Source of the DNA: Myxococcota bacterium
GTDB lineage: Bacteria > Myxococcota_A > UBA796 > GCA-2862545
Assembly (NCBI GenBank): GCA_039208735.1
Contig: JBCCQY010000120.1
Span: 1 to 27,749, forward strand
Length of the DNA stretch: 27,749 nucleotides
Reading direction: 5' to 3'
The position numbers were made by a program, and so were the translations under genes. Below, in pieces: positions 1,877 through 23,052 of this stretch. The first letter of the stretch is position 1; every line of letters starts with the position of its first letter. The notes under the pieces are model-generated. The model was not told the origin of the DNA. It searched no databases and worked only from the letters and a program-made list of their open reading frames with translations.

Positions 1877-3343
1877 ATGAACGAGAAGGGCAAGCGCGCA
1901 CTCCAACACTTGGACGCAACACACGAGCTCGACCATCAGCGCCAAACGTTATCGGCGAAGCTGCTCTTGGTCCTCTTCCGGCCACGTGAACTCCTGCGGG
2001 TGGTGAAAGGGAACCTGTCAGAGATCGTGACGGAGCTTCCATCCGCAGAAGTCGGCATGCCAGATGCCGATTGGATGGATCGGACGGCCGAGATCGTGGT
2101 CAGGCATGGCTACTTCGAGGAGATGTGCGCGCTACTCCTGACAATTCGGCCGCGGCGCGAGCACGACATTCGTCAGGTCATCGATGCATGCGTTCCGGAG
2201 GATGTGCCCATCGAGCCAATGGAGGATGCGCTTGATGCGCTAGAAGTTACTTCGCGCGCGAAGTATGAACATATGCCACCGACAGCCACAGTTGCGGCAG
2301 AAGCACAACGATTGGCAGAGGACGCTGCAGTCCAGCTCATCCAATCGTCGAAGGGGTCCGTGGTTCTTGTCTTCGAAGGTCCACATCGTGCTGTGGAGCG
2401 GCTACGACTTGCACTTCTGCACCGCGGAGCCGTTGCTGGAATGCCAATTGAGAAGGTCGGCATACAGGCCATCGAAGCGAAGGGAATGCGAAACATCAAG
2501 GCTGCTGGGCTTCATGACCGACTTCACAAGGTTGAACGGGCACTGACCCATAGGCTGTCCGAATATCCGACGTTACGAGACGTACTGGCAAAGGAATTGG
2601 ATTCTCCAGACCTCGATGCGAGTGCCTTGGCCAAGCAGCTGCTGAAGGCGCATGCCCACGACCTGGTTCGAGCGCTCCGTCGCGCCCAGTCCTACCTCAG
2701 TGAAGAAGCTCGCAGCCCTCTCTACGGCTTACTGACCGAGTTGTTGCCCTATCTGGTGGACTGGCGGGAGGCGCAGCTACGGATGCGCGAGTATGCCGTT
2801 GACGAAAACCTGATCGAAACCGAGGCGCTCGAGTGGGAGCTTCCGCTTTGGAAGGAAGCATCCGTGGAGCTGCTGCTGGCCGGTGCAGATGAACGGCCCC
2901 CCACGTTCGAGATTGATGGTGGCGTTCGGGTTCGTGGCAAGGCCTGCCTGTTGTTGCCCACCCTCGACCACCTGGCCGACATCAGGAGGCTGTCTTCCGA
3001 AGAGATGATGCTCATGGTGGTGGACGCACTGCAGTTGGCCCACGACGAGTGGCGAATTGCCGAACACCCTCGAGAGGAGGACCGGATTGCCATTGCCCGA
3101 GATCTGCTTGACGACGCTCGACAAGGCCCACGCCAGGAATGGCCCTATCTGGTGATTGTCGACAGCCTCCTTGGCGCAATGGCGGAAGAGGTGTGGGGTT
3201 TGATCGGTAAAGGCCTCGATGATGCCGGGTTGCGAATGCGGCGGATGCGACTCACGGGGCGACCGGCGCGGTATGAGAGAAACCTTGAGATGCTCATCCG
3301 AGATCTGAAGCGCAGCCAGACAGGCGAATTAGGGGTTCGATAA
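1877..3343 (+). CDS. VMAP-like (vWA-MoxR-associated) protein, paralog 1: EAD-like N-terminus, SEA-like middle, C-terminal domain shared with 3805..5448
   Basis: 488-aa ORF. The C-terminal half aligns with the next gene (LLPYLVDWREAQLRMREY..EALEWELPLWKEASVELLLAGADER vs LLPYVVDWRAAQVRMREH..DALTWELPLIKEASAELLLAGVDER; MRRMRLTGRPARYER vs IRRMRLTGRPQPYER). The VMAP label is inferred from position next to MoxR/vWA. Confidence 0.75.
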   Translation: MNEKGKRALQHLDATHELDHQRQTLSAKLLLVLFRPRELLRVVKGNLSEIVTELPSAEVGMPDADWMDRTAEIVVRHGYFEEMCALLLTIRPRREHDIRQVIDACVPEDVPIEPMEDALDALEVTSRAKYEHMPPTATVAAEAQRLAEDAAVQLIQSSKGSVVLVFEGPHRAVERLRLALLHRGAVAGMPIEKVGIQAIEAKGMRNIKAAGLHDRLHKVERALTHRLSEYPTLRDVLAKELDSPDLDASALAKQLLKAHAHDLVRALRRAQSYLSEEARSPLYGLLTELLPYLVDWREAQLRMREYAVDENLIETEALEWELPLWKEASVELLLAGADERPPTFEIDGGVRVRGKACLLLPTLDHLADIRRLSSEEMMLMVVDALQLAHDEWRIAEHPREEDRIAIARDLLDDARQGPRQEWPYLVIVDSLLGAMAEEVWGLIGKGLDDAGLRMRRMRLTGRPARYERNLEMLIRDLKRSQTGELGVR

Positions 3344-3804
3344 GTCTCCACCTGGAGGACCCATCGATCACAACAGTCACAGTTTTGCTCTTCGGCGACT
3401 GCCTAACTGCCATCTCAACCCAGCGAAAGACAACCCTTGCATCCTGCGTCTTGATGGGAACACAGTAGAGCGTTTCGTCAGGGACACAAGCTCGGGGTGC
3501 TGCTCCAGTCTCCGATCAAGCGGCTTCCCAGACCGCTCCTCCGCAGAGGTGCCAGGTCTCGGGAGACGACCGGCACGGGACAGGCCTTTGAGCTGTGGTC
3601 GGAGCGTTTGGGGCTGATGGCACGTCCCATTGGCGGGGAGATGCCGTGGTTGAACTCCACGAGCCGCAGGTGACGATCCCACCGAGCAAGTCGAATTGAT
3701 CTAGGCATCGCCTCGCTCTTTGGCCGGTGTGAATTCTGTGAACGCTCCATGTTTGCCAAGCGATGCATTTGCGTTTGAGCATGGAGGCAGAGCGGGAGGC
3801 GACG

Positions 3805-5448
3805 ATGGCATCACGGGCGTTGGCGCTCTCTGAGCTACTCGGCAAACTCTTCGACGATTCCAAGAGTGCTGACTTGCTGCGGTGGACCACAATTCTCGAG
3901 GATCGGACTCAACCTGACCTCCGAGGCCTTGTCAAGGCTGTGCGGTGGTCGGCCCCGATGGCCCAGGTGACGTTTGAGCTAAGCCACAGGCTCGAAGAGC
4001 GAGGGACACTGGAACTCCCCCACATTGAAACGGTGCACAGGCTGCTCGTCGAAGCCTTCCCGCTGAGAAAGGACGAAATCGCAACCACTCTCGGTTTTCA
4101 TCCAGAGGCGTCATCGACGGGCGCTCGAGATGCGAACGCACCCGAGCCAAAGCGTCAGCAAACCGTGCCCTCGCCTCCCTCGGTCGCGGTTGGCGCCAGG
4201 AGCGAGCAGGGTGAGGTCATCGAGATCGGCGCTGCGACAGCCATCGCGAAGCACTGGTTGCTTACATGTCGACTTCCTCAAGATGCGAATGCCGTCGTCG
4301 TGCGCATCGAGGAAGAATGGTGGCCGATGGCCGAGAGGGTCGACCATCCCGACCCCACGTTCGATGTCGCCTTGTTGCGCTCGGAGTCGCCGCTACCGGG
4401 GCCCGTCGTCGACATGGCGGCGGTGGGCAAGTCGGTGTCGTTGTCGGTGCCCAAAGGAGCCAAGCCGGGCCAAGGCCTGTTTGCCGACGGTCGCCTGGTG
4501 GGCGTGTGCACGGGTGAGGACCCACCCGTGGCCCTCCCGCTCGCCCAGGTGGAAGCTTGGGTATTGCAGAAGGCCGCTGGGTTCTGTGACCGGTTGAAAG
4601 TGGTGCAGCGGACGCTGGAGCAGGCGCTCGGTGCGCATCCGGGTGTTCGGGAACGCTTAGCCAAATCCCTCGGCGTTCCTGCGGATGCTCCGAAACTGGC
4701 CGAACGACTGCCGCAGCATCATGCCGACGTATTGGCGGAAGCGCTGTTGCAGGAGGTCCTCCGCACCTCTGAGAGCGACGTACCGCTGCGAACGGCGCTG
4801 TGGACCGTGCTGCGTGCACTGTTGCCCTATGTGGTCGATTGGCGGGCGGCGCAGGTGCGAATGCGCGAGCACGAACTGGATGCTGAGGTCGTGGACGCCG
4901 ATGCGCTCACGTGGGAGCTTCCGCTCATCAAGGAGGCGTCGGCGGAGCTCCTTCTTGCGGGCGTCGACGAGCGCGATCCGCAGTTCGAGGTCGACCGAGG
5001 CCGGCCTCGAGGCGCGACGTCCTTGCCGCTTTCGACACTCGAGCACGTGAGTGGCATCGTCAACGTGGAGAACCAGGACCACATCACGGACATCGTGCTC
5101 GAGGACCTCGGCAATGCCATGGTCGAAGACCTCAACCTGACGATGGGCTTGAACCTCGACGACCTCTCTGACGTGAAAGACCAGCGCGAGGAAGCGGCAG
5201 GACTCCTTGCCGACATTCGGCGGTTCCGGCGGGACCGCCTGCCCTACATCGTGATGGTGGACCGGCACCTGCGAAGGGACGAAGAGCCTGACCAGCTGTG
5301 GGAGCTGTTGAACCAGGCCTTGGACCGAGCGAACCTCGGTATTCGGCGCATGCGGCTTACCGGCAGGCCGCAGCCCTACGAGCGGCGCTTCGAGCAAATG
5401 GTGTCCGAGTTGAAGCCCTGGGAAGACCCCGACGGAGGTGACGCATGA
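3805..5448 (+). CDS. VMAP-like protein, paralog 2: EAD-like N-terminus, degenerate trypsin-like domain, conserved C-terminal domain
   Basis: GGGAGG RBS at 3794-3799 precedes ATG 3805 (track starts at 3763). Trypsin-like traces: GAATAIAKHWLLTC, HPDPTFDVALLR, PGQGLFADGRLVGV. The stop overlaps the MoxR start (ATGA 5445-5448). Confidence 0.8.
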   Translation: MASRALALSELLGKLFDDSKSADLLRWTTILEDRTQPDLRGLVKAVRWSAPMAQVTFELSHRLEERGTLELPHIETVHRLLVEAFPLRKDEIATTLGFHPEASSTGARDANAPEPKRQQTVPSPPSVAVGARSEQGEVIEIGAATAIAKHWLLTCRLPQDANAVVVRIEEEWWPMAERVDHPDPTFDVALLRSESPLPGPVVDMAAVGKSVSLSVPKGAKPGQGLFADGRLVGVCTGEDPPVALPLAQVEAWVLQKAAGFCDRLKVVQRTLEQALGAHPGVRERLAKSLGVPADAPKLAERLPQHHADVLAEALLQEVLRTSESDVPLRTALWTVLRALLPYVVDWRAAQVRMREHELDAEVVDADALTWELPLIKEASAELLLAGVDERDPQFEVDRGRPRGATSLPLSTLEHVSGIVNVENQDHITDIVLEDLGNAMVEDLNLTMGLNLDDLSDVKDQREEAAGLLADIRRFRRDRLPYIVMVDRHLRRDEEPDQLWELLNQALDRANLGIRRMRLTGRPQPYERRFEQMVSELKPWEDPDGGDA

Positions 5449-6467
5449 CGGCAACCCAGACAACCGGCCTGCTCCAACGGGCGGCCGGTGACCGTGACGT
5501 GCTGTCGAGCGTTCGGGTGGTTCCGGGAGAGACCCCGACCCACATCTGGGAAGCGAACCACATCTTGGCGGTCGAGATGGGGCTGGCCACGGGCCGAGCC
5601 TTGTTGGTGAGAGGCGCGCCTGGGACCGGCAAGACGCAACTCGCCAAAGCGGCTGCGCACGCCTTGGGCGCTGCGTTGGTGCCGTATACGGTCGATGCCC
5701 ACACCGAGCCGCGCGACCTGAAATACCACGTGGACCACGTCGCCCGGTTGGCCCGGGCCCAGGCGATGGCGGCAATGGCGCCACAATCGGTATCGAGAGA
5801 AGGTGCGCCCGCAAGTTCGTCTGGTCGCGACCCGCTCGAGCCTTCGCAGTTTGTCCACCCAGGTCCATTGTGGTGGGGCTTCAACCCCGTCTCGGCTCGC
5901 GAGCAGGCCCAGAATACGGGCCTGGACCCCAAAGGATGCGCGGTGCCTCCAGGGGCCGAGGCCGGGGGGCGGGTGTTGCTCCTCGACGAAATCGACAAGG
6001 CCGACCCCACTGTCCCGAATAGTCTCCTCGATGCGCTTGGCTACGACGTGTTCGATGTGCCTATTCCTGGGTGTCCTCCGCGCGTCGAGCGAGCTGAGGG
6101 CCGACTGTTGGTGGTGATTACGACCAACGAGGAGCGCTCGCTGCCCGATGCGTTCCTCCGCCGTTGCCTGGTCCTCGAACTCGAACCTCCTTCGAGCGTC
6201 GACGAGCTGGTGGAACGTGGCGCCGCACATTTCGCCGCGTTGGCGCTGCCGATTCTCGAGGAAGCCGCCCATCAGCTGATGGCAGACCAGGCGGAGGCTC
6301 GCAGGCAGGGCAGCTACGTTCCCGGGCTTGCCGAATACCTGGACTTGTTGCGGGCCTTGGTCTCGATGTGTGGCGAGGACGACACCCGACAGCGAGCGCT
6401 GCTCGAGCAGGCCGCGCGTTTCGTGTTCCGCAAGGAGCGTCGAGGGGCTCGCGGAGCAACCCGATGA
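5445..6467 (+). CDS. MoxR-family AAA+ ATPase
   Basis: Walker A GAPGTGKT, Walker B VLLLDEIDKAD, and sensor/arginine-finger segment VVITTNEERSLPDAFLRRC. GGAGG RBS upstream. Confidence 0.95.
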   Translation: MTATQTTGLLQRAAGDRDVLSSVRVVPGETPTHIWEANHILAVEMGLATGRALLVRGAPGTGKTQLAKAAAHALGAALVPYTVDAHTEPRDLKYHVDHVARLARAQAMAAMAPQSVSREGAPASSSGRDPLEPSQFVHPGPLWWGFNPVSAREQAQNTGLDPKGCAVPPGAEAGGRVLLLDEIDKADPTVPNSLLDALGYDVFDVPIPGCPPRVERAEGRLLVVITTNEERSLPDAFLRRCLVLELEPPSSVDELVERGAAHFAALALPILEEAAHQLMADQAEARRQGSYVPGLAEYLDLLRALVSMCGEDDTRQRALLEQAARFVFRKERRGARGATR

Positions 6468-9400
6468 GGGGGCAGCGTGCCGATCTGCTTCGTTTGCTTG
6501 GGACCTGGAAAGACCGTCCCTGGTCGGACCGAGTCGGTGCGGCGACACGGCTTGGATTCGAAGCATCCGACGAAGGGGGGCTCGAGTCGGACGAGTCTCC
6601 ACCGGAGTCGCTCGCTGACGTCGGGCCGCCGGAGCCTTCGCCAGAACCCGAACCGGCCCTCGTCCCCCCGGAACTCGAACCCGTTCCGCTGTGGCGCATC
6701 GAGACGGCGGAGCCCATCGCCCCCGCTCCCACCCTTCCGCCTTGCGAGAGTGGACTTCGAGCTGAGGACCTCTCCCCAGGCCGCTCGCTGAGGGACCTTC
6801 CCGATACGCCCGAGGTCACTCCTTGGTCGCGGCTCGAACCTCGACTCGCAGCCATCGTTCGAAGCGATGCCCCATCGCATACGGTGGACCTGCGGAAGGT
6901 GGTGGCGCGGTTGGCAAAGGGTGAGGTGCTGGATCGACTTCCGCGGGCCACTCGGCACCGGTGGCCGCATCGGCTTCATGTCGTACTCGACCGCCGAAGC
7001 CCCTTTGTCACGCTGTATGCCGACCAAATTCGGGTCTTGCGGCAGCTGGCCAAGCGGTGCAGCCAGGTGACCGTGGGACGTGGCTTCCCTCCGCCGCTGC
7101 CACCCCACGCAACCTTGTTGGTCGTCGGTGATGCGAATGCGCTGCGGTCACGACCGTACTGGCGCCGACGTGCGGCCCAGCTTGGCCGCGTCGGGGTCCG
7201 CCTAGCCGCATTGGTGGCCGACGCTCGACCCCTGAGGGACACCTTTTGGCACGCGACGACTTGGGAGCGGCGTCCCGCGGTCACCGAGCCCGAGGTGCAG
7301 CGGTCTCGAGTCCGACGGTTACTGCGTCTTGGTTCGGTAACCCCCTTGCTGCAGCCGGGTCTGCTGCGCGCCCTTCGTCTGCTCCTGCCCGCCGACGAGG
7401 CCGACTTGCAAACTGAGCTGCAAGCTCTTGCCGACCCTACGCTGGTGCGTGAGGTCGACCACCAAGCGGTGGTCATCGAGCCCGCCCTGGTTGAGGAACT
7501 CCGAGAAGAGTTCGAGAAGCAAGTCCCTGCCGACCTCCAACATCGGGTTTGGCAGACCATTGCTGCGTGGCACGAGGCGCTCCCGGTCGAAGTCGGCGTG
7601 TTCGACCACCTTGTGCGCCGGGGACTTGAGGGGCCGACCGAGGGAGCGGCATCGGCGTCGGCACTGGACTTCGTGCGGCGGCTCCAGCGGACGATTGGCT
7701 CTGGGCAAGGGGGCGCAGGATGGCGGCGGGTGGCCCGAGGCTTCCTCCGACATCTGCCTGTTCCACCGAACCGCGTGGACCCGCAGCTCGAACAGGTGTT
7801 GGGGGGACTTTCCGATGTGCTCGGCGGTGAGGCGAATGCAACCCCAGTCGCGCACCCCGTCGTCCAGGTCGGTTCCGAACTGCGGGTGGGGCAGACTTCA
7901 GGCAGCATTGTGGGGACGTTGTACAGCGCATCAATGGTTGTCGTGGAACGCCCCGGGTCGAGGGCACGACAACGCGTGACACCCGGACTTCGCATTCCCT
8001 TGCCCTCAACTGTTGAGCAACGACCCGAATGGGCGGTTGCAAGCGGTCGAGATCGGTTCGGGCGCTGGGCTGAGGCTGAAGTCGAGGGCGTACGGTTCCG
8101 TATGCGGTGGGTCCCACCAGGCAGGTTCCTCATGGGCTCTCCGCCGTCTGAACCCGATCGGTTCAACGATGAGAGGCTACACGAGGTCGAAATCACGCGA
8201 GGCTATTGGCTGGCCGCAATGCCCGTGACGCAAGCTTTGTGGCGCGCCGTCATGCAGACGAACCCAAGCAAGTTCGAGGGCGACGAGCGGCCAGTCGAGC
8301 AAGTGTCTTGGCACGAAGCTCGGGAATTCTGCCAACGGTTGACAGCGAAGTTGCCGGGGCTGGGGTCCCGGTTGCCGACCGAAGCGGAGTGGGAAAAGGC
8401 GGCGCGGTCAGGTCGCACCGACCGGGGTTGGGCGACCGAAGAAGAACTGCGGGAGATTGCTTGGTTCGAAGACAACAGCGATATGCAGACGCATCCGGTA
8501 GCGCAGAAACAGCCGAATGCCGGTGGGTTCCACGACATGCTCGGCAATGTGTATGAGTGGTGCCTGGATGCCGTACACAGCTTTGCTGAGCCTTTGCCTG
8601 ACGCGTACGCATCCGATCCGCTTGGCACGAGCGGCTCGCGCCGAGTGTTTCGTGGCGGGTCGTGGAACGCCCGCGCGAGGCGCGTCCGCGCGGCCTACCG
8701 CTACGCGAACGAGCCTGGCAATCGCTACGCCTACCTTGGGTTTCGTGTGGCCGGAGGTCCTGCGCCAGGGGGCGGAGCCCCAGGACCGGGGCGGGACGCA
8801 CCGGGACCCGAGCGCGAGGGGACCGAGCCCAGTCCCGATGCTGACGTTGTTCCCGAGGTTGAGCGTCCCCAACCGCCAACGCGAACTCGCATCACCCTTC
8901 GGAGCCGATTCCAGCGACTCACGGTAGCTCCCTGGTTTCGTGAGCCTTGGGTGACCGCTGCAGGGCGCGATCGATTCGGCTTGTGGTCCGAAGTCGACGT
9001 ACAGGGCGTGCGGTTCCGAATGCGGTGGATTCCACCAGGTCGGTTCATGATGGGCTCGCCGCCGAGTGAAGCCGGCCGGTACGACGACGAGACCCTGCAC
9101 CCGGTCCACCTCACGCGCGGTTACTGGCTGGGCGAGACCCCGGTGACCCAGGACCTCTGGCAGGCCCTTATGGGAACCAACCCGAGCCGGTTTGTGAGCC
9201 CGGGTCGGCCCGTCGAACAAGTGAGCTGGGAAGAGGCGATGGCGTTCTGCAAGGCGCTGGGCGAAGCGGCTCCAGGCTTGTCACCACGGCTACCCACCGA
9301 AGCGGAATGGGAACATGCCTGTCGAGCAGGCACCGAGACGACGACGTGGGTAGGGGACCTCGAGTTGTTGGGCAGGCGGAACGCACCGTTGCTCGACGCC

Positions 9401-9886
9401 ATCGCTTGGTACAGCGGGAACAGCGGTGTGGAGTTCGACCTGGACGATGGGTACCACACTTCGATGTGGTTCGAAGCGCAGTACGACCACACGCGAGCAG
9501 GTACGCATCCGGTGCGTACACGCCAGGCGAATCCGTGGGGGCTATACGACATGTTGGGCAATGTGTACGAGTGGTGCTTGGACCAGGTCGAAAGCAGCAG
9601 AAGCCCACTTCCTGCAGAAACCCAAACAGACCCGTTGAGTCTAAGCGGCTCGAGCCGGGTGATTCGTGGCGGGTCGTGGCGCGCCCTCGCGAGGAGCGTA
9701 CGCGCTGCGGCACGCCGGGCGTACGCTCCTGGCGTTCGCTATGATCGCCTCGGGTTTCGTGTGGCCGGAGGTCCTGCGCCAAGTGGCGGAGCCCAAGTTG
9801 CGGGCCGGGACGGCGCAGTGCAGTTCCGAGCGGAGCGAGGTGGCCCGGAGGGCAGGCCGAAACCCAATTTCGAGGACCCCCAATGA
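6464..9886 (+). CDS. vWA-like domain protein fused to two FGE-sulfatase (SUMF1/CLec-fold) domains
   Basis: True start is probably ATG 6464 (ATGA overlap with MoxR, GGAG at 6453). vWA-like segment VDLRKVVARLAKG..LHVVLDRRSP..LLVVGD. Two copies of the FGE motif set (PPGRFxMGSP, PVEQVSW, RLPTEAEWE, DMLGNVYEWC, RGGSW..LGFRVA). Confidence 0.92.
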   Translation: MRGQRADLLRLLGTWKDRPWSDRVGAATRLGFEASDEGGLESDESPPESLADVGPPEPSPEPEPALVPPELEPVPLWRIETAEPIAPAPTLPPCESGLRAEDLSPGRSLRDLPDTPEVTPWSRLEPRLAAIVRSDAPSHTVDLRKVVARLAKGEVLDRLPRATRHRWPHRLHVVLDRRSPFVTLYADQIRVLRQLAKRCSQVTVGRGFPPPLPPHATLLVVGDANALRSRPYWRRRAAQLGRVGVRLAALVADARPLRDTFWHATTWERRPAVTEPEVQRSRVRRLLRLGSVTPLLQPGLLRALRLLLPADEADLQTELQALADPTLVREVDHQAVVIEPALVEELREEFEKQVPADLQHRVWQTIAAWHEALPVEVGVFDHLVRRGLEGPTEGAASASALDFVRRLQRTIGSGQGGAGWRRVARGFLRHLPVPPNRVDPQLEQVLGGLSDVLGGEANATPVAHPVVQVGSELRVGQTSGSIVGTLYSASMVVVERPGSRARQRVTPGLRIPLPSTVEQRPEWAVASGRDRFGRWAEAEVEGVRFRMRWVPPGRFLMGSPPSEPDRFNDERLHEVEITRGYWLAAMPVTQALWRAVMQTNPSKFEGDERPVEQVSWHEAREFCQRLTAKLPGLGSRLPTEAEWEKAARSGRTDRGWATEEELREIAWFEDNSDMQTHPVAQKQPNAGGFHDMLGNVYEWCLDAVHSFAEPLPDAYASDPLGTSGSRRVFRGGSWNARARRVRAAYRYANEPGNRYAYLGFRVAGGPAPGGGAPGPGRDAPGPEREGTEPSPDADVVPEVERPQPPTRTRITLRSRFQRLTVAPWFREPWVTAAGRDRFGLWSEVDVQGVRFRMRWIPPGRFMMGSPPSEAGRYDDETLHPVHLTRGYWLGETPVTQDLWQALMGTNPSRFVSPGRPVEQVSWEEAMAFCKALGEAAPGLSPRLPTEAEWEHACRAGTETTTWVGDLELLGRRNAPLLDAIAWYSGNSGVEFDLDDGYHTSMWFEAQYDHTRAGTHPVRTRQANPWGLYDMLGNVYEWCLDQVESSRSPLPAETQTDPLSLSGSSRVIRGGSWRALARSVRAAARRAYAPGVRYDRLGFRVAGGPAPSGGAQVAGRDGAVQFRAERGGPEGRPKPNFEDPQ
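8633..8780 (+). repeat. DGR variable-region-like repeat VR1 with conserved 3' (IMH-like) tail
   Basis: Aligns without gaps to 9647-9794 and 10767-10914. Differences concentrate in codon positions 1-2 of NNY codons. 8738-8767 is identical over 30 nt to 9752-9781. Confidence 0.75.
9647..9794 (+). repeat. DGR variable-region-like repeat VR2
   Basis: GSSRVIRGGSWRALARSVRAAARRAYAPGVRYDRLGFRVAGGPAP; same nucleotide scaffold as VR1 and VR3. Confidence 0.72.
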
Positions 9887-10035
9887 GGCTCCACTTCATT
9901 TGCGTCCCCGTATTTGACGATGGTAAGGCGCAGGCCGAACTCAACCGGTTCCTGGCAACCCATCGCGTCGTGGCGGTCGACCGCCAGCTCCTTGCGTTCC
10001 GGGCCGTTTGTGCGTCATACGCCGACCAGCCATGA
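9883..10035 (+). pseudogene. 50-aa ORF resembling the N-terminal part of DGR-associated HRDC accessory proteins; HRDC domain missing
   Basis: Not in the ORF track. Translates as MRLHFICVPVFDDGKAQAELNRFLATHRVVAVDRQLLAFRAVCASYADQP*. It has a GAGGA RBS at 9872-9876 and ATGA overlaps at both ends (9883-9886, 10032-10035). The family match is recalled from the F.IPv......ELNrFL..HRV..VDRq pattern, not searched. Confidence 0.7.
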
Positions 10036-10961
10036 CCCATCCGCTTGCGCGAGGTGCGCCACCGCTTTGGGCGTCCGAATGGGGAGAAGACGGCTTCGGA
10101 CCCTTTGTCGCCTTTGAGGTCGAAGGCGTGGTCCAGCGGATGCGGTGGATTCGCAAGGGCACGTTCTGGATGGGTTCCCCCGACGAGGAGAGCGGCCGTC
10201 GAGATGACGAAGCGCGTCATCTCGTCACCCTCCCTCGTGGATTCTGGCTCGCCGACACGCCAGTCACTCAGGCGCTTTGGGAGACGGTTATGGGCGATAA
10301 TCCGAGCCGGTTTCGCTTGCCATTGCGACCGGTAGAGCAGGTGAACTGTGAAGAGGCTCAAGCCTTTTGTAAGGCTCTGGATACCCGTGTTCCGGGACTG
10401 AACCCACGGCTGCCGACCGAGGCGGAATGGGAACGCGCGTGTCGAGCGGGCACTGAAACGGCGACGTGGATCGGAGACCTTGAGCTTCTCGGCGAGCGAA
10501 ACGCCCCTTTGCTCGATTCCATTGCTTGGTACGGCGGGAATAGTGGTGTGAACTTCGACCTCGAGGAGGGGCACGACAGTGCGAGGTGGGACGAAACGCA
10601 GTACGCGCACAAGAAAGCAGGCACGCGCAAGGTAGCCCTGAAGGACGCGAACCCGTGGGGGCTGTACGACATGCTTGGCAACGTCTACGAGTGGTGTGCG
10701 GACGTCTACGAACGACAACTACACACTGGACGTAGACGATTCTCCGTGTACACGGACAATATCGAAGGCTCGCTCCGAGTGATTCGTGGTGGGTCGTGGC
10801 TCAGCCTCGCGGGGAGCGTGCGTGCAGCGTACCGCGACGCGTTCGAGACTGGATTTCGACGCACTAACCTTGGATTTCGTGTTGCTGGAGGTCCTGCGCC
10901 AATTGGCGGAGCCCAGGAGGCGGAGCCGACGAAGAGGTCGGGGGACCCGACCAAGGGGTGA
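10032..10961 (+). CDS. Stand-alone FGE-sulfatase (CLec-fold) domain protein
   Basis: Start ATG 10032 (MTHPLARG) in an ATGA overlap. Motifs RLPTEAEWERAC, NPWGLYDMLGNVYEWC and RVIRGGSW..LGFRVA. Closest to the second FGE domain of the upstream gene (shared GDLELLGxRNAPLLDxIAWYxGNSGV insert). Confidence 0.92.
   Translation: MTHPLARGAPPLWASEWGEDGFGPFVAFEVEGVVQRMRWIRKGTFWMGSPDEESGRRDDEARHLVTLPRGFWLADTPVTQALWETVMGDNPSRFRLPLRPVEQVNCEEAQAFCKALDTRVPGLNPRLPTEAEWERACRAGTETATWIGDLELLGERNAPLLDSIAWYGGNSGVNFDLEEGHDSARWDETQYAHKKAGTRKVALKDANPWGLYDMLGNVYEWCADVYERQLHTGRRRFSVYTDNIEGSLRVIRGGSWLSLAGSVRAAYRDAFETGFRRTNLGFRVAGGPAPIGGAQEAEPTKRSGDPTKG
10767..10914 (+). repeat. DGR variable-region-like repeat VR3
   Basis: GSLRVIRGGSWLSLAGSVRAAYRDAFETGFRRTNLGFRVAGGPAP; same scaffold, with more synonymous drift than VR1. 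Confidence 0.68.
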
Positions 10962-11249
10962 CGCGACGTCGGAGACGGCGAGGAGCCTGCGCTGAGGCCG
11001 TGCTCGCACACCGAGGTCCAGCCGCAACAACGGACTCATGGCGGCGCGAATAACGGAGATGTCGACCTGCTTCGGGGTCTTGTCGGCATGAGGATCGGTG
11101 ATGCTCGTGAGCGTTGGCGATCGTCCCGCACGACTCACTTTGTCGGAACTGCTTTCGTTCACACCCCCGTGAATTCGTACGACCTCGCGCTGTGGGCTTC
11201 GTCGCTCGACTACACGCCAGGTTTGTGAACTGGTTCACGGAAATGGGAA

Positions 11250-12149
11250 GTGGCAAGCTCTGGGCGTACCGGGGTTGGCATGTTCGTAGCTCTGTTCTTG
11301 TCGATGGGCGTTGGAAGTGACGCCGCAGCGCACCCTGGTGGTCTCGATCGCTATGGCTGCCATAACAACCGTCGTACCGGAGGCTACCACTGCCACAGGG
11401 CGCAACCGAGCCGTGCCCCTGTGGCTCGCCCGAGGCCACGTCCAAAGCAGCAACCCTTGCTTCAGCCTGACCCGGTGCCGAAACCCATCCTCGCGGGCCA
11501 AAGAGACGGCTGCAAGTACCGCGTGGGGAAAGGAGATACCTTCGCCGTGATCGCGAAGGAACATCAGCTCTCGGTGAACGAGCTTGAGGGATTGAATACC
11601 GATATCAAGGATATCAACTCACTCGAAGTCGGTGACTGGCTGGTCACAGACGAGCGGTGCATCAGCAAGGCAAACCCCCCACCGAGCCAATCCTCCACGT
11701 CAGGTCCCAAGACGTCGTCAGGGCGAACAGATGGCAGTGGGCTTCTCGGGTGCTCCTGCTGTGGCCTGATGACCTTTGGCTTCCTGGGCGTCCCGCTTCT
11801 CTTCTCGTTGGCGTTGGTAGGACGAAGGAAGAGGCGCCGGTTGGCCAAAGAAGAGCTTGAAAAGCTGGCACTTCAACTCCAGAACCTCGTCGGCCGACAA
11901 GACCCGGATTTGGCGAAGGATGGAACCAAACGCCCGTTGAACATATGCCTCTCTTGCCACGAAACGTGGTTCCCGAGAGGACAGGATCGATCCGAGAGTT
12001 GCGGCTCGTGCGGTTCGCAGATGGTGGTCTACGCAACCCCGACGGTGAAGCAGAACCTACCGGAAATTCAACGCATTTGGCGCGAGATGCGACAACTCGC
12101 GGATCGGAATTCCGGTCTTCGAGCATCGGTGCAGCTTGACGAAGTTTAA
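11250..12149 (+). CDS. Signal peptide - YHYH-type His/Cys domain - LysM - transmembrane helix - Zn-ribbon protein
   Basis: Signal-like FVALFLSMGVGSDAAA; AHPGGLDRYGCHNNRRTGGYHCH; LysM YRVGKGDTFAVIAKEHQLSVNELEGLN..SLEVGDWL; hydrophobic LMTFGFLGVPLLFSLALVG followed by RRKRRR; CLSC..CGSC. The start may be ATG 11280. Confidence 0.85.
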   Translation: MASSGRTGVGMFVALFLSMGVGSDAAAHPGGLDRYGCHNNRRTGGYHCHRAQPSRAPVARPRPRPKQQPLLQPDPVPKPILAGQRDGCKYRVGKGDTFAVIAKEHQLSVNELEGLNTDIKDINSLEVGDWLVTDERCISKANPPPSQSSTSGPKTSSGRTDGSGLLGCSCCGLMTFGFLGVPLLFSLALVGRRKRRRLAKEELEKLALQLQNLVGRQDPDLAKDGTKRPLNICLSCHETWFPRGQDRSESCGSCGSQMVVYATPTVKQNLPEIQRIWREMRQLADRNSGLRASVQLDEV

Positions 12150-15754: not shown

Positions 15755-16543
15755 TTACGACGCGTAGCACTCAATCCCGTTCCTTCGTTGTCCCTCCGAA
15801 TCTGAAGATGCCGCCGGCCAGTCCTCCCAGGTACGACCATCGAGTTCTCGCCCGCCTGCTTTCGACGTTCTTCCGCCCCATTGCTTGAAGAAGAACGGTA
15901 CGTCTTCCGCAATACACAGGTCTCGTACCTCGCGTATCCAATCCAGGAGCACAGGGCGGTGATTCGGTCCTGACTCACCACCTACGATGACCCAATCGAT
16001 TCGGTCGAGTCGTAATTGGTTGATGGAGCCCAATAGAGGTTCGCAGGATAGGAATCGGACCTTGGCGGGCGTTTGTCGGAGGTGATCTACACGGGCCAGC
16101 ACCGAATCATCTTCTACGCTCGTGCCAAGCCACAAGTTGTCGGGCCACGGAAGGCGGTGTGCCAGCCTCAGTGCTCGTAGCGGACGCTTCGTTAGCAGTT
16201 GGTACTGGTGTTGGGGCGTTTCTTGGATGACACTAAACACGCTTTCAACAAAGGATACCGGAACTTTTGCGTGGAACAAGTCGCTCATACTATTGACGAA
16301 GATTCGTCTGGGCTTCCGCCACCGACGAGGGATGTCGAGTGCGCTTTCATGCACTGTCAAACCGAACCCGGGACCCGAGGTCTTCGGGTTGCCATCTCGT
16401 TGGTACTTTCCCACGCCCATCGCCTTGAGACGCGCAGCCAGCGCAAGAGCGTAGCAGTTATCGCAGCCTCGGCTGATCCTGTCGCACCCAGTGGTGGGAT
16501 TCCATGTGGCGTCCGTCCATTCGATATTGCTGCCATGAGACAT
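15755..16543 (-). CDS. DUF5131 family (phage Gp37/Gp68-like, radical-SAM-like three-Cys) protein
   Basis: SNIEWTDATWNPTTGCDRISRGCDNCYA, IFVNSMSDLFH, LLTKRP, FLSCEPLLG, WVIVGGESG, FFFKQWGG. Start ATG 16543 with GGAG upstream. Confidence 0.95.
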   Translation of the reverse strand: MSHGSNIEWTDATWNPTTGCDRISRGCDNCYALALAARLKAMGVGKYQRDGNPKTSGPGFGLTVHESALDIPRRWRKPRRIFVNSMSDLFHAKVPVSFVESVFSVIQETPQHQYQLLTKRPLRALRLAHRLPWPDNLWLGTSVEDDSVLARVDHLRQTPAKVRFLSCEPLLGSINQLRLDRIDWVIVGGESGPNHRPVLLDWIREVRDLCIAEDVPFFFKQWGGRTSKAGGRELDGRTWEDWPAASSDSEGQRRNGIECYAS

Positions 16544-16832
16544 TCGTACTCCAGCGATCTCGGCGCAGTATCTGGATTCCAGTTTCGGTGTCAATGGGCT
16601 GGCCCGAAACCCTCCGCAACTTCCGGTATGTCAGAGGACTAAGCTCTTGATTTGCGAGCCTAGGTTTAGGGAGTTCCCGGATCTGCACGCCTCGAACGTA
16701 TGTTCAGTTGGCACATAAGAGCTTGGGGTCGTGGACGCGACGAACAAGTGCCTTGGCTGCCAGTGAGCACTCCGCGAAGCTGGTAACAACTTGCAATGCG
16801 CCCTCGAGGCCCAGATTACCGCACCGCGGAAT

Positions 16833-17147
16833 TCAGGTGGCGACACTGGCGTCGCGAGTCTTCAGGGGCGGGTGACCAAGCCGTCTACGAATGCGGAGGC
16901 CGTCGAGTCCTGACGTAGCACTCTCGCCTGAGGGCTCTTGGTGGATGTAGATGTCGAAGGTGTCGAGTCGCTCGCCTGGGGTGGCACCATAGGCATGCAT
17001 CAGTAGTCCAAGCTTCCGAGGGATCGGAAGCGCCTCCTCTGACTCATAAGAGTAGATTGTGCGGCGTGGGATGCCGGTCAACATCACCACCTCGCGCACT
17101 GATAGTCCTTTGTTCTTCCTCATACGTCTGAGGTGAGCACCAAGCAT
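16833..17147 (-). CDS. XRE-family helix-turn-helix regulator
   Basis: MLGAHLRRMRKNKGLSVREVVMLTGIPRRTIYSYESEEALP. AGGAG lies 7 nt upstream of ATG 17147; the longer track ORF overlaps the divergent gene. Confidence 0.82.
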   Translation of the reverse strand: MLGAHLRRMRKNKGLSVREVVMLTGIPRRTIYSYESEEALPIPRKLGLLMHAYGATPGERLDTFDIYIHQEPSGESATSGLDGLRIRRRLGHPPLKTRDASVAT

Positions 17148-17240
17148 CACTCGGCTCCTGTGCGATATCATCGCTCTATCATCATGCGGGAGATTCGAGC
17201 AACTCCACCGCTCGTCTCGGGTCGGCCTACGCTGTGAGCG

Positions 17241-17612
17241 ATGAATGCAATGGATACGATAGGCGCCGCGCTTCGACGCCGCCGAGAAGAGCGCGGACTC
17301 ACGGTGCGTGACGTCTCCGAGGCCACCGGTGTGGCCTACAGCACAGTAGCGGGCATAGAACGTGGCCAGAACACGACGATGGAGCGGCTGGAACAGCTCT
17401 TTGAGTTCTACAACCTTCGTTTCACACCGGTGATTGAGTCCGCTGATCAAGAGCCGGAGAGCCTGCCCCTCTTCAAGGTTCCGCTCGACCGAAGGGTTGT
17501 GGCGCACCGGATCGTCGAATCACTGCCAACGCTGGCGGACGCCCAACTCGCGACGCTCAACAGCCTCATCAGCCTGTTCGAAGAGACCGCGAGTGAGAAG
17601 GAAGCAAGGTAG
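17241..17612 (+). CDS. XRE-family helix-turn-helix regulator
   Basis: IGAALRRRREERGLTVRDVSEATGVAYSTVAGIERGQNTTMERLEQL; divergent from the other XRE gene. Confidence 0.9.
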   Translation: MNAMDTIGAALRRRREERGLTVRDVSEATGVAYSTVAGIERGQNTTMERLEQLFEFYNLRFTPVIESADQEPESLPLFKVPLDRRVVAHRIVESLPTLADAQLATLNSLISLFEETASEKEAR

Positions 17613-17877
17613 CTGCAGGCTTAGGGGTTGGAGGCGATTCGCCCGAGTCAGGTAAGCAGAGATGTCGTGTTTTGTCATCGCATCGGCGCATTTTGTGCGA
17701 CAGTGTCGCTCAACCAATAGTGTGATGGTGCCGCACAGAAGAGCCGCGATGCTTTCGGGGTTCCCTTCTCTGCGCTCGCTGCATCCAGCCCAGGGCCCCG
17801 GATGCGCGAACCCCCGAGGTGCGTTCGCCGGCAAGCACGCACACCCTGGGGGTCCACCGGCCCGATTGGGAACAACC

Positions 17878-18432
17878 ATGAGCCAAGACTCCAGTAACGA
17901 CCCCACCATCACGCGGCATACCGACGACGAGGCGCCGTCTGCAGATACCGCGCCCACGTCGACGCAGCGCGAAGCCCTGCTGAGTGCGATCGAGTCCCAG
18001 CTGGCGACACTGCGGGCGTCGAACGACGAGGGCGATCTGGCCTGCCTCGCGGGGGTCTACGGCGGCCTGCGCGCGTTGACCGAGCCGCCTGCGCCAACCG
18101 AGTCCCTCGAGGTTCAGCTGCTGAGGCTGCACCAAGGCCTCGTGGAGGACGCAGGACGAGCCCAGCGGCTCCTCGATCAGGTCCAGATCATGAAACGCGT
18201 CACGGAGCGACTGCTGCAGCGGGTGCAGGGTCGCCCGGTGACCGACGAGCCAGCTTGGCTCGACGTCGCGCATCTGCACTTCGGTGCGGACGACCTCCGA
18301 CTGAATCTGTCGTGCCTCAGCGGCTGCCCCGAAGACATCGACCAAGTGGCCTCGCTCTTCGGCGGCGACGATTGGACCGTGGAGTTCGGTGACCCGTCGC
18401 CGTCGACGCCTGCCCCCGCCTCCCTGCACTAA
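17878..18432 (+). CDS. Hypothetical protein
   Basis: GC-rich third codon positions and helical composition from ATG 17878 (MSQDSS); co-oriented with the primase cluster. Confidence 0.6.
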   Translation: MSQDSSNDPTITRHTDDEAPSADTAPTSTQREALLSAIESQLATLRASNDEGDLACLAGVYGGLRALTEPPAPTESLEVQLLRLHQGLVEDAGRAQRLLDQVQIMKRVTERLLQRVQGRPVTDEPAWLDVAHLHFGADDLRLNLSCLSGCPEDIDQVASLFGGDDWTVEFGDPSPSTPAPASLH

Positions 18433-18501
18433 GCCCCGCCTCCCCGCCCCATCTCGTGCCTGCCAGCTCGGCGGGACTGCGGAGCTGTGCCTGGAGCAAC
18501 C

Positions 18502-19221
18502 ATGACCCTCCACTCCTCCCCCAAGCCCGTCACCGCCTGCGGATGGCGACGGGTTCTCGCTCGCGGCGACTCGGGTCGCTGGCTGTTCGGCCCCGCGCAC
18601 TGCACCGCCGACGCCGCGTTGGTCGTGCTCGACCGCGAAGCCATCGGCCACGTCTGGCTCTACCACGCCTACGGGCGCCCCAACGGCGTGACGCTCGAGC
18701 TGCTTCCGTTGCCCGGTGACCTGGGTGACCAAGCGCCGCTCAAGGCGCTGCAACGACACCTTGAGGCGCTGGTGATGTCGCCTTCCCCTGCGCCGCCCCC
18801 GGTGGCCCCAAGGCCGGCCATGGTGCCAACCCCATCACGACGACCCCGCCGTTCGCCCGTGCCGACCCCGACACGCCCCCGATGGAAGCGCACCCACCGT
18901 CGAGGCGCTGCGGGTCGGTGGCTCTACGGCCCCGACGGCTGTCATGAGCCCACGGCCCTTGTCATCATCGATCGCGTGTACGCGACCGAGCCCGGAGCGC
19001 ACGGCCGGCCCCGTGAGAACCGTGGCGTGTGGCAACACACGGTGCGGGTCCGCAACCCACGGACTGGCGAGCTGACCGAGCACCGTCTGTGGGGCGAACT
19101 CGGGCAGATGCTAAGACCGCCCATCCGAAGCATCCAGGCGTGGGCGGTCAAGCGGCTGAACGGTCGCCATCCGAGCCGCATGACGGTCTCGACCGAGGCC
19201 CCTGCGGTGGTGTCGCCGTGA
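18502..19221 (+). CDS. Hypothetical protein with internal duplicated domain
   Basis: GGAG RBS; two copies of W(R/K)R...RG..GRWL(F/Y)GP..C....ALV..DR; TGATG overlap with the primase gene. Confidence 0.7.
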   Translation: MTLHSSPKPVTACGWRRVLARGDSGRWLFGPAHCTADAALVVLDREAIGHVWLYHAYGRPNGVTLELLPLPGDLGDQAPLKALQRHLEALVMSPSPAPPPVAPRPAMVPTPSRRPRRSPVPTPTRPRWKRTHRRGAAGRWLYGPDGCHEPTALVIIDRVYATEPGAHGRPRENRGVWQHTVRVRNPRTGELTEHRLWGELGQMLRPPIRSIQAWAVKRLNGRHPSRMTVSTEAPAVVSP

Positions 19222-21626
19222 TGGGCTGGATGACGCAGGCCAAGAGCCATCCCGTCGCTCACATCGCCGCTGCCTTGAAGCTTCAGGTCACGCGCAACAC
19301 GATTGGGCCCTGCCCTTCGTGCGGAGCGTCCCACCGCGAGCACAGCGGGCGCCGGGGTCCCATCGGAACCACGACCGACGGCGCAGGTTGGCGGTGTCAC
19401 CGCTGCCAACGCACGGGCTCGACGGTGGACCTCGTCGGCCTGGCCCTCGGGGTCGAGCCCACGTCACCCGAAACCCGGGCGTGGTTCGCGGCGCGGGGCT
19501 GGTGTGATCCGTCCAAGGAGAGCCCACCACCACCGCATGTGAAGCCGCCACCCCTGCCCCCGCGAGAACCAGAGCGAGCACCACCCCCGCACTCGGACGT
19601 CGAGCGGCTGTGGGCCGACGCGCCACCCATCACGGACGACGAGTTGTCGATGACGTGGGTGTGGAGCCGAGGTCTGGACTCTGCGACACTCGCCGACCGG
19701 GACCTCGCACGCGTCATCCCGAACCAGGCCCCCAGCTGGGCTCGGCGATGGCGCAGCCACTACCGTGTCCTGCTGCCGCTGTACGACGCCACCGGGACGT
19801 TGCGGTCCGTCCGGGCTCGCAAGGTAGCCGACGTGCGCGGACAGAAGAGCCTGAATCCCAAGGGCTACACCGTGGGAGGCCTTGTGTTCGCGAACGCATC
19901 GGGCCAAACCCTGCTTCGGGACGGGGCACTCGGGGAAGGTGCCCGCGTCTACCTCACCGAAGGCGGCCCGGACTTCCTCACGGTGGCCGCGTGGTTGTCC
20001 GAGACCAGTCCCGATGTCGTGTTCGGGATCGGAGCCGGTCAATGGACGCCCGAACTCGCGGCGCGCATTCCGGACGGTACGCAGGTCTTCGTCTGCACCG
20101 ACCCGAACGCAACGGGACGGGCCTACGCGAAGGCAGTAGCCGAATCCCTCGAGGGACGGTGCCCGGTGTGGGTTCCGGACCCCGACGCGACGGACCCACG
20201 CGACCTCAACGACCGGTGGCGGGAGGGCCCCCAGGCCTTCGACCCGACCGCGGGGCTCGTCCGCTACGCAGTGGCGTCGGTGCCTCCGAACGGCGGAACG
20301 TGTTGCAGCGAAACACCGGATGGCAGGCCGTACCTGGCTGCGGCGAAGGGGGCACAAGGCTTCTATGTGGCCACCGCCACAGGCTACGTCTTCGTCGCCT
20401 CGAAGCTCGTGCGGGTCGAGCTTCAGCGGTTGTGGCCTCATCTGCAGACCCGCAACGAAGAGGGCGAGCCGCTCGGGGCGGCCACGCTCTACGAGCGGTT
20501 CGGACGTCGCGTCGACGACGTCATCTTCAGCTACACAAGCCGCACCCGCTTCGAGAAAGGCCCGAACCACGGCGGGAAGCTGTTCCTGCAGGTCTTGCAA
20601 GAACCCCCACCGCCTGCCGTCTTCCACGCCGACGTTGATGAGTGGCTAAGGCTCGCCTTCAACGAGCGGACCCTCGATTGGCTCGCCACCATGCCGGAAC
20701 TCGGTCAGCCCACGAGCGCGCTGTGGCTCTACGGTGCGAAGGGCATCGGCAAGTCGATGATTGCGGAAGCCTGCAGCGCCTACTTCGGCAGTGCGGTCAC
20801 CGACTACGACGACGTCTTCAAGGGCCGCCTCAACGATGCGTTGTTGCGGTGTCCCATCATGCACCTCGACGAACAGGCCGAGGTGAAGGCGAGCACCGGC
20901 GTCATGCGAAAGCGCATCGCCAACTCCCGGCACGCCATCGAGGCAAAGGGCGAACCGTCTGGCACGCTTCACGGCTGTCCTCGGCTCATCATCTGCTCGA
21001 ACAACCCCGACCCGATGGGGTGGGGTCGCGAAGCCCTGACGCGCATGGACAACGACGCGATTGGCGACCGCATGCTCATTGTCGACTGCAACCCGGCCGC
21101 CGAGCGGTGGCTCAAGGAGCGCGGAGGTCGGCAAGGGGTCACGTCGGACTGGCTCGAACGGTCCGATGGCTCACGCGGACGGTTGGTCGAGCACATCGCG
21201 TGGCTCGTGCAGAACCGTACCGTCGAGCGTGACCCTCGCTTCTTGGTGCCCGGAGACGCCGCCGAGTGGTCGGCTCGGGTGGGAACGCGTGAAGGCTTGC
21301 CACGAACCATCCTCGATGCGTTGGCCTGCTACCTCGAGATGAGCCCCGCCGAACGGAACTGGGTCGACGACAAATATCCGCCGTTCCTTTGGCACCCCAA
21401 CTACGCCGACACGGTTCTCATCAGCGTTCCGGGCCTCATCCGAAATTGGCGACCGCTCGTCGGAGCAGGTGAACCCGTGCCCTCACCCGTCAAGACGGGC
21501 AAGGCGCTCCAAATCCTCACCAACGCGGATGGCCCGACGCGGATTCGCTTGCGCGCAGGCGACGACAAACGCGTGCGCCTGTACCTGCTTCCCGAGAGCG
21601 TCGTCGCTCGTCACGTGGGGGCGTAG
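19221..21626 (+). CDS. Primase-helicase: Zn finger + Toprim + SF3 (DUF5906-like) NTPase
   Basis: GPCPSCG...WRCHRC Zn finger; VYLTEGGPDFL, VCTDPNATG and DLND Toprim motifs; Walker A LYGAKGIGKS, Walker B MHLDE, motif C LIICSN. Start at the TGATG overlap, 19221. Confidence 0.88.
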   Translation: MGWMTQAKSHPVAHIAAALKLQVTRNTIGPCPSCGASHREHSGRRGPIGTTTDGAGWRCHRCQRTGSTVDLVGLALGVEPTSPETRAWFAARGWCDPSKESPPPPHVKPPPLPPREPERAPPPHSDVERLWADAPPITDDELSMTWVWSRGLDSATLADRDLARVIPNQAPSWARRWRSHYRVLLPLYDATGTLRSVRARKVADVRGQKSLNPKGYTVGGLVFANASGQTLLRDGALGEGARVYLTEGGPDFLTVAAWLSETSPDVVFGIGAGQWTPELAARIPDGTQVFVCTDPNATGRAYAKAVAESLEGRCPVWVPDPDATDPRDLNDRWREGPQAFDPTAGLVRYAVASVPPNGGTCCSETPDGRPYLAAAKGAQGFYVATATGYVFVASKLVRVELQRLWPHLQTRNEEGEPLGAATLYERFGRRVDDVIFSYTSRTRFEKGPNHGGKLFLQVLQEPPPPAVFHADVDEWLRLAFNERTLDWLATMPELGQPTSALWLYGAKGIGKSMIAEACSAYFGSAVTDYDDVFKGRLNDALLRCPIMHLDEQAEVKASTGVMRKRIANSRHAIEAKGEPSGTLHGCPRLIICSNNPDPMGWGREALTRMDNDAIGDRMLIVDCNPAAERWLKERGGRQGVTSDWLERSDGSRGRLVEHIAWLVQNRTVERDPRFLVPGDAAEWSARVGTREGLPRTILDALACYLEMSPAERNWVDDKYPPFLWHPNYADTVLISVPGLIRNWRPLVGAGEPVPSPVKTGKALQILTNADGPTRIRLRAGDDKRVRLYLLPESVVARHVGA

Positions 21627-21651
21627 CCGATGGTGCCGTTCTCCTCGAACA

Positions 21652-21941
21652 GGTCCGGGGTCGCACCCTGCGCGATGCCGATAAACAGGGCATCGTCACT
21701 GACGGTCCGACATCGCAGACGCGCGGTCCGAACACTGGGCCGGGCAAGAACGCAGACGACACCACGCTGGTCCGGAGGGGCAGGGGTCTGCGTGCATTCC
21801 CGCGTACTTCCCGAACGGTGCGCCACCCTCTCTACACCCCAAGGAAGTGCCCAGCGATTCCAACCTCGGACCCTCCGGACCACACCGTTGTCATCGGTCT
21901 CCAACGTCGGACCGTACCCCGGACCCTGTCTGGACCGGACC
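21652..21941. repeat. Inverted array of GGTCCG/CGGACC hexamers, candidate replication-origin iterons
   Basis: GGTCCG at 21652, 21704, 21725, 21769; CGGACC at 21867, 21876, 21908, 21920, 21936 (plus TGGACC at 21931), immediately downstream of the primase. Confidence 0.65.
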
Positions 21942-22194
21942 AGGGTTGGAGGAGAGGAAGAGAAGAGGGAAGAAGAAGGGTGTTGCTTCAGAAGCCACGT
22001 TCTCCTTCCTCTTCCGCTGTTCTCACGCCCGTTGCACCCATCGATGAACGACGGACGAGACGTTCGAGCGCCTGACGGGCGCCTGTGGGCTCCGTCCTGC
22101 ATCCAGCCTGTGCTCCCTTCCCGCCGCACTCCCTTCCCCCTTCCCGCCGACGCTGAACCGCAGTGTTGGACCTGCCTGAGCTGTGGAGTCCCCC

Positions 22195-23052
22195 ATGCTT
22201 GAATTCACCTTCGAGTTCGAGGGCCAACCCCTCGAGGTCCTTCAAGTCGACAATGAACCCATGATCGACGCGAGCCACCTGTCTGACGTGCTCGGCTACA
22301 AGTCTCGCGGTGCCATCACTGATCAGATCCGCCGCGATTGGTCCAGCGAGTTTGAGGAGGGTCGAGACTACAGGATGGTCGCCGGTTCTTCTATTCCGGG
22401 TGTTTCCGGGAATAGAGGAAGCAACCGTCCGAAGCTGCTTCTCACCGAGTCGGGCTGGAACCTCGTGTTCATCAAGACCCGCAAGCCCATCGGCGTCGCC
22501 TTGCGCCGGTTCCTCGCCGATGAGGTCCTGCCCCAGTTGTCGCGAACCGGGCAGTACACGCTGGGCGGTCCCACCCACGATGACGCGTTGGCGGCCCGGG
22601 TCTCTCGGCTCGAGCAGGGCCAGGAGAAGCTGACGGAGGTGGTGACGGGGCTCACGCATGTGGTGTCGGGCCTCGCGAAGCAGATCGCCACGCTTCCGCA
22701 CACTCGCATGCCCGCTCTTGGTGACGGCGCTGCGCCAGCGAGGCAGCTCCTGGTCCACGGGGTGCCGGTTCCGCCGCTGAGCATCCCCGAGCGGTTTTCG
22801 ATCCGAAGCCTGGGCCAGCTGGCACGTCCCGAGGGCTGCAGCGCGCAGACGATGAAGAAGCGGCTGCAGAGCGTTGGGCTACTCGACGACGACGTGTGGA
22901 GCTGGGTTGGCGAAGAGACCGTGATGACGTCATCGGGATCGGAACGGCAGCAGACGGTCTATGCGTTCCGCAAGGGCATCATGGCCGAACTTCGTAGACG
23001 GGAAAGGCGGGGCTCGCAGGGGCCACTGTTCGTCTGGCAGGGGGAGGAGTGA
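22195..23052 (+). CDS. Bro-N domain protein (phage antirepressor-like)
   Basis: FEFEGQPLEVLQVDNEPMIDASHLSDVLGY...LLLTESGWNLVFIKTRKPIGVALRRFLADEVLPQLSRTGQY; GGAG RBS before ATG 22195. Confidence 0.88.
   Translation: MLEFTFEFEGQPLEVLQVDNEPMIDASHLSDVLGYKSRGAITDQIRRDWSSEFEEGRDYRMVAGSSIPGVSGNRGSNRPKLLLTESGWNLVFIKTRKPIGVALRRFLADEVLPQLSRTGQYTLGGPTHDDALAARVSRLEQGQEKLTEVVTGLTHVVSGLAKQIATLPHTRMPALGDGAAPARQLLVHGVPVPPLSIPERFSIRSLGQLARPEGCSAQTMKKRLQSVGLLDDDVWSWVGEETVMTSSGSERQQTVYAFRKGIMAELRRRERRGSQGPLFVWQGEE

Follow-up and report, generated by a model that had tools for sequence, protein, structure and literature searches.

In the main text of the survey by Wu et al., HRDC genes accompany 14 of 372 DGRs and are assigned to architecture C (PMC5758913). 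The DGR of Treponema denticola, in the part of its description consulted here, has an HRDC gene that overlaps the RT, and isolates that carry targets without RT and TR are described there as leftovers (PMC4891356). The main text of Dore et al. covers MoxR-linked DGRs in which a long CLec target is paired with a short one, as well as degenerate loci, and reports degenerate loci of Thiohalocapsa as diversified in trans (PMC10907252). Kaur et al., again as far as the main text goes, connect MoxR-vWA systems that have FGS domains with DGRs (PMC7159879). Here, we analyse a stretch of 27,749 nucleotides from a Myxococcota bacterium (the window), in which a 50-codon ORF lies between two CLec targets behind a MoxR gene. 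The locus is a well-resolved case of an HRDC-type DGR in a degenerate state, with a MoxR ATPase beside it; DGR decay is already known.

The operon and its 50-codon ORF

The relevant features of the operon are the following.

5445 to 6467, forward strand: MoxR-like AAA+ ATPase gene (Pfam AAA_5, E 1e-12; bpMoxR below cut-off)
6464 to 9886, forward strand: long target gene, 1140 aa from the ATG at 6464, with tandem CLec/FGE domains (PF03781 twice)
9872 to 9876, forward strand: Shine-Dalgarno-like GAGGA of the stump, seen in the sequence within the last codons of the upstream gene, 6 nt before the ATG
9883 to 10035, forward strand: stump of an HRDC accessory gene, 50 codons, identified by homology; N-terminal domain only, HRDC domain absent
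9994 to 10002, forward strand: internal five-codon deletion and Trp to Arg change in the stump (comparison of 149 homologues, codon view; place uncertain by about one codon)
10032 to 10961, forward strand: short CLec/FGE-only target, 309 aa, intact (PF03781, E 3e-42), with no Shine-Dalgarno signal upstream

The MoxR gene is 41–51% identical to the gene in the equivalent position of intact cassettes, and its stop overlaps the start of the long target (ATGA at 6464). The long target's N-terminal region had no Pfam match, and Pfam vWA was absent in 12 of 12 members. Its structural model (pLDDT 86) is of alpha/beta type, and NorD vWA chains appear at ranks 5, 7, 9 and 10 as weak matches (E 3e-3 to 7e-3, query TM 0.15–0.25) mixed with sugar-isomerase folds; the modelled region is possibly vWA-like. 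The short target is 59% identical to the second target of the intact cassette L001. A search for sigma-70-like promoters in 9300–11300 found 0, with 0.3 expected.

Upstream of MoxR stand two paralogues (1877–3343 and 3763–5448), 43% identical over about 290 C-terminal residues and without a Pfam match at E<=1; the position matching them holds a TIR protein in L001 and a CHAT protein in L002. Further out, the pentapeptide-repeat genes at 331–1719 and 26110–27423 have a 5' region of 89 nt that is 85% identical, and the latter also bears a TIR domain. A phage- or mobile-element-like block with DUF5131, HTH regulators, a DUF5906/Toprim protein and Bro-N occupies 15755–25035; the gene after it matches EAD1 weakly, below cut-off.

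The gap between the two targets had been predicted to hold an unlisted ORF with its own ribosome-binding site, read as the N-terminal end of a DGR HRDC accessory gene. The ORF (9883–10035, forward strand, 50 aa) has exactly the translation originally given. Its ATG lies inside the ATGA at 9883–9886 that it shares with the TGA of the upstream ORF, and its own TGA lies in the ATGA at 10032–10035, shared with the ATG of the next CLec/FGE gene of 309 codons. The GAGGA taken for its ribosome-binding site is present, and its pairing energy of −5.9 kcal/mol is the same as the genome-wide median for 429 ATGA-overlap starts. A score at least as good occurs at 21% of 896 random positions, so the site is plausible and not striking. 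Codon bias is uninformative, GC3 being 0.74 in the stump and 0.65–0.75 in its neighbours.

The HRDC assignment held: six longer proteins, out of 26 candidates, match the ORF at E 5e-10 to 1e-7, and the ORF is therefore no chance frame. It aligns with the first 55 residues of these homologues at 60–66% identity with a 5-residue gap and stops before the HRDC domain, which four of the six carry as PF00570 at about residues 85–155. The stump alone found no family in Pfam or NCBIfam, a complete HRDC gene bearing PF00570 being absent. A profile of the N-terminal region matches 2177 cluster representatives. Among the 149 homologues listed from it, 148 have a near-invariant Trp where the stump has Arg, and none has the internal deletion of five residues, which preserves the frame. 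In the AlphaFold model of an intact homologue, a strand-helix-strand-strand domain (residues 2–52) is followed by a linker and an HRDC domain that matches RecQ HRDC structures; for the N-terminal domain, the search for a solved sequence relative reached E 0.67 at best, and structural comparison gave only matches of Z 4.4–5.2. Since the homology ends before the HRDC domain, the Trp has become Arg and the gap is unique, the stump can be identified by sequence comparison as the N-terminal domain, now damaged, of a DGR HRDC accessory protein. The same substitution and the five missing residues make the peptide itself look dead, and it is probably non-functional.

The 55-residue N-terminal domain is widespread, with near-invariant Pro, Asn, Phe, Trp and Cys, and has no Pfam model. 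Only 25 of the 149 listed representatives have the full HRDC part, and of 136 tails, 17 gave a match to RT, TR or FGE sequence. Two representatives are apparent fusions, P0048 of two FGE domains and HRDC (913 aa) and P0078 of HRDC and RT (502 aa), either of which may be a read-through or an assembly error.

The lost cassette and the probable end of homing

The comparison with relatives rests on these further features of the window.

8651 to 8746, forward strand: VR1, internal, in the first CLec domain (adenine-position test; repeat family D3)
9665 to 9760, forward strand: VR2, in the second CLec domain (adenine-position test; repeat family)
10785 to 10880, forward strand: VR3, in the short target (adenine-position test; comparison of VR scaffolds)
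10018 to 10035, forward strand: inferred junction of a deletion of about 1.6–1.75 kb, ending in the new ATGA overlap (comparison with L001, L002 and L051)

We examined 28 distinct places with the N-terminal domain, leaving out matches mainly to the HRDC part and counting identical pairs once (L057 with L056, L075 with L002, L040 with L001). Matches to the stump had been expected beside RT and FGE genes, and an intact TR and RT at the syntenic place in relatives, and both turned up. An intact HRDC gene followed by RT is found in 19 of the 28 places (L004 being classed as intact from its ORF list and its TR), a stump in six, and three lie at a contig edge (L055, L062, L064). The full order of MoxR, long CLec target, HRDC, RT, TR and short CLec target is present in L001, L002, L051, L052, L060 and L077–L080; L001 is the same DNA as G001:C118, which belongs to the same genus as the window genome. 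The TR-VR pairs of the relatives mostly differ at at least half of the adenines and at 0–3 other sites, as in L002, where 12 of the 19 adenines and none of the 77 other sites differ between TR and VR1. Exceptions, counted as non-adenine differences, are L001 (4 and 6 of 81), L056 (7 of 75), L081 (13 of 77) and one VR of L003 (14 of 69). Since most pairs follow the adenine pattern, the cassettes of the relatives are, to judge by their repeats, real DGRs.

The cassette of L001 (8001–9630) may itself be decaying: it has ATC where the HRDC gene should start, and AAC codons are fewer in its TR, which also shows 4–6 non-adenine mismatches to its own VRs. Among orthologues that combine the same upstream gene with MoxR and a tandem two-CLec target, the nearest is G002:C72 (L109), where the contig breaks at the second VR; contigs C211 and C209 of the same genome hold arrays of short FGE genes with related VRs.

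Between HRDC codon 55 and the start of the second target, L001, L002 and L051 have a block of 1.6–1.75 kb that is absent in the window. What was lost would have been the remaining HRDC sequence, the RT and TR, and the short target's 5' leader. As HRDC-like codons of the stump reach about 10018–10031, with the stop directly afterwards, the junction is placed at about 10018–10032, within some 15 nt of the ATG of the short target, and this agrees with the original prediction of a DGR deleted behind the upstream CLec gene with its end near 10030. A deletion of this extent means that the short target lost its Shine-Dalgarno site. The search of four other genomes of the genus found no close relative with the same junction. 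The locus is almost certainly the remnant of a deleted DGR.

The prediction had also mentioned a VR reading, and the adenine positions bear it out. Each of the three domains ends in a 96-nt repeat, starting at 8651, 9665 and 10785. For the test we took the 22 positions at which most of 14 TRs from relatives carry A, these TRs being borrowed, akin and non-independent. At these positions the window VRs differ pairwise in 14–15 of 22 cases and elsewhere in 10–15 of 74 (Fisher p 4e-6 to 5e-5), and the third base is alike in 7 of 9 AAY-type codons. At the 61 positions that are never A, the window VRs show 7–9 differences, 6–8 of them at third codon positions; VR pairs of eight intact two-target cassettes have 0–3 differences at 66–81 non-A sites. 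The drift at never-A positions amounts to about 0.3 in pairwise synonymous distance, and the VR3 branch has five synonymous and two non-synonymous changes (one at an adenine) outside mutagenic codons. Since the VRs have drifted mostly synonymously at non-A sites, homing likely ceased long ago, and the CLec domains appear from these substitutions to have stayed under purifying selection after it ended. The synonymous bias of VR3 is no proof that the short target is still needed, because the end of homing may predate the deletion.

Could the missing block be an artefact, or the machinery sit elsewhere in the genome? It is hardly credible that the assembler collapsed an HRDC-RT-TR block. DGR loci do often break assemblies, and the contig G002:C72 ends at its VR, but the junction has no repeat, the stump bears separate lesions and the VRs have drifted. 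Moreover, one Logan contig of run X1, which may equal the source sample and would then give no independent support, spans 7284–11380 and crosses the junction with 0 differences, which counts against a local join error; next to nothing of the stretch was found in runs X2 and X3. By genome-wide comparison it is also very improbable that an RT and a TR elsewhere still diversify the targets in trans. The assembly is 92.7% complete in 288 contigs, and repeats often remain unassembled, which leaves some room for a hidden cassette. Against this, the RTs of relatives found no DGR-type match in this genome, and of its three RVT_1 matches, those on C42 and C145 score best as retron-like and that on C283 as a group II intron. 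Nor did the search turn up a TR-like segment: elsewhere the VR scaffold is matched at best at 44 of its 59 positions, and Asn-rich segments are absent among the 16 that are VR-like. In addition, active homing would erase non-adenine differences such as those among the window VRs. In this genome the N-terminal domain has no copy other than the stump, and the locus is not an active DGR. Further decayed FGE/VR pieces occur on C22 at about 67000–68200 (L049) and on C107 at 28357–28500 (L050); the C22 VR is 85% identical to the TR of L001, with differences enriched at adenines (10 of 17 versus 8 of 82).

The six other stumps are the second copy of L003, L041, L053, L056, L058 and the second copy of L059. 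Those of L003, L056 and L058 have HRDC joined to the RT end with the TR wholly or partly kept, that of L041 is frameshifted, and that of L053 is followed by an unrelated two-gene insert. An ATGA overlap at the stump end occurs in one of the six (L059), with an unrelated gene. At L053:1562–3733 the stump is followed, in place of RT and TR, by an ORF of 378 aa, P-loop ATPase-like by eye, and a second ORF whose stop overlaps the ATG of a short CLec target. The HRDC N-terminus is joined to RT sequence, often in the RT frame, at L056:2575–2760, L058:6001–6144 and L003:11563–11850 and likewise in the proteins P0007, P0013, P0081, P0105 and P0134. L056 is about 90% identical to the intact L054, and internal RT pieces totalling about 45 nt are apparently kept at its junction. 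These pieces had prompted the idea of an RT-driven or programmed deletion, which was rejected as the endpoints differ among stumps. An estimate of stump frequency from protein representatives was also given up, since representatives at 50% identity are enriched for fragments and aberrant forms.

What the stump may do now

An ATGA stop-start overlap is an established geometry of translational coupling, and the overlaps at 9883 and 10032 have the same geometry as those at 5445 and 6464 of the same operon. Ordinary ATGA coupling differs in that here the upstream frame is the remnant of a broken gene and the 3' overlap would have been made by the deletion. The Shine-Dalgarno energy of the short target is +0.4, equally weak in just 5.6% of the 429 ATGA-overlap starts, and the best start, chosen by eye, is stronger in each of the 13 relatives (of 15) that could be scored, at −2.7 to −10.7. 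The stump and the short target thus combine a stop-start overlap with the lack of an independent downstream Shine-Dalgarno signal, as would be expected of a coupled pair. The 5' overlap is present in 7 of 20 assessable relatives and, going by this distribution, is ancestral.

Homology and synteny show that the ancestral genes stood in the order of MoxR, long CLec target, HRDC, RT, TR and short CLec target. Mutagenic homing would have stopped long ago with the CLec domains remaining under purifying selection, as the drift of the VRs indicates, and comparison with the relatives shows that the missing block reaches to within some 15 nt of the ATG of the short target and includes its Shine-Dalgarno site. 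In the sequence as it stands, the stop of the stump overlaps this ATG as ATGA. Ribosomes may re-initiate at 9883, read 50 codons, terminate at 10033–10035 and re-initiate at 10032. The HRDC remnant left by the deletion of about 1.6 kb would now likely be only translated RNA that passes ribosomes to the CLec gene. A de facto coupling of stump and short target is, from the arrangement of the two frames, reasonably probable, and such a bridge would be the likeliest present role of the stump. Selection for coupling may have kept the stump, a possibility that we regard as somewhat doubtful. The broader proposition, that HRDC-RT-TR deletion is a recurrent freezing of the CLec sensors of MoxR-linked DGRs and that the stump was co-opted as a sequence-independent bridge for a short sensor without a Shine-Dalgarno site, is tentative and on the unlikely side.

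The stump could also be a neutral scar, left as the deletion could not cut into the overlapping upstream gene, with the 3' overlap a matter of luck and the short CLec gene silent or starting unaided. At a neutral drift of 0.05–0.2 substitutions per site, 50 codons would remain stop-free with p 0.53–0.84 and the ATG would survive with p 0.56–0.86, so survival of the frame is likely without selection; multiplied by two one-in-three frame chances, this comes to about 3–8%, for features picked post hoc. Conserved residues are retained with p 0.01–0.95 according to the threshold and age assumed, which does not clearly exceed the neutral expectation. Stumps with varied endpoints recur, five of the other six are uncoupled to the next gene, the 5' overlap is inherited from the ancestor, and the same genome holds other decayed FGE/VR pieces on C22 and C107. 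Nevertheless, out of some 1.6 kb the junction fell at most about 15 nt from the ATG and in the sole frame that gives a stop-start overlap, the second, internal deletion preserves the frame, and the short target without its Shine-Dalgarno site is intact over 309 codons. We consider the neutral scar unlikely. Far more improbable is a working mini-protein, a whole predicted N-terminal domain that could still bind partners. The stump does end where the domain is predicted to end, the internal deletion takes the tip of a hairpin in the model, and all residues conserved at >=80% are kept in the first 36, but the Trp that 148 of the 149 homologues carry has been lost, the gap is shared with none of them and the presumed partners RT and TR were not found in the genome. 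The ribosome bridge, if true, would make this a clean case in which a broken gene is retained for being translated and not for its product. The locus is no new kind of system.

Relation to described systems

The literature covered here, mostly open papers in their main texts, yielded neither an HRDC stump nor coupling through a DGR remnant; such cases may figure in the supplementary material of the Wu et al. and Dore et al. papers. The word HRDC is absent from the main text of the latter (PMC10907252). A profile of the N-terminal domain, which is absent from Pfam, can reveal former DGRs that are invisible to RT-based searches. The locus illustrates the aftermath of the loss of a hypermutation cassette, in which the sensors are apparently constrained and a stump of 150 nt marks the breakpoint.

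As far as the consulted parts of the descriptions go, HRDC-type DGRs (PMC5758913, PMC4891356) have, like the relatives studied here, an HRDC accessory gene beside the RT and FGE/CLec targets. The relatives differ from them by the order of target, HRDC, RT, TR and target behind MoxR, and the window differs by having a 50-codon HRDC stump that lies between two targets and overlaps both. In gene layout the window resembles clade 5A in the main text of Dore et al. (PMC10907252), with MoxR directly upstream of a long CLec target that has an unannotated N-terminal extension, and with a short CLec-only target. In that text transposons and MITEs are linked with decay, and machinery acting in trans serves some loci, whereas no machinery was found in the window genome. 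In the MoxR-vWA ternary conflict systems, as outlined in the main text of Kaur et al. (PMC7159879), a vWA domain belongs to the gene after MoxR and a third component, VMAP or iSTAND, stands upstream; in the window, these places show the possibly vWA-like region and the two paralogues with no Pfam match described above. The window and its relatives resemble these systems in having MoxR and a following gene fused to FGS/CLec domains, and share with them a variable upstream gene (TIR in L001, CHAT in L002) and the association with DGRs.
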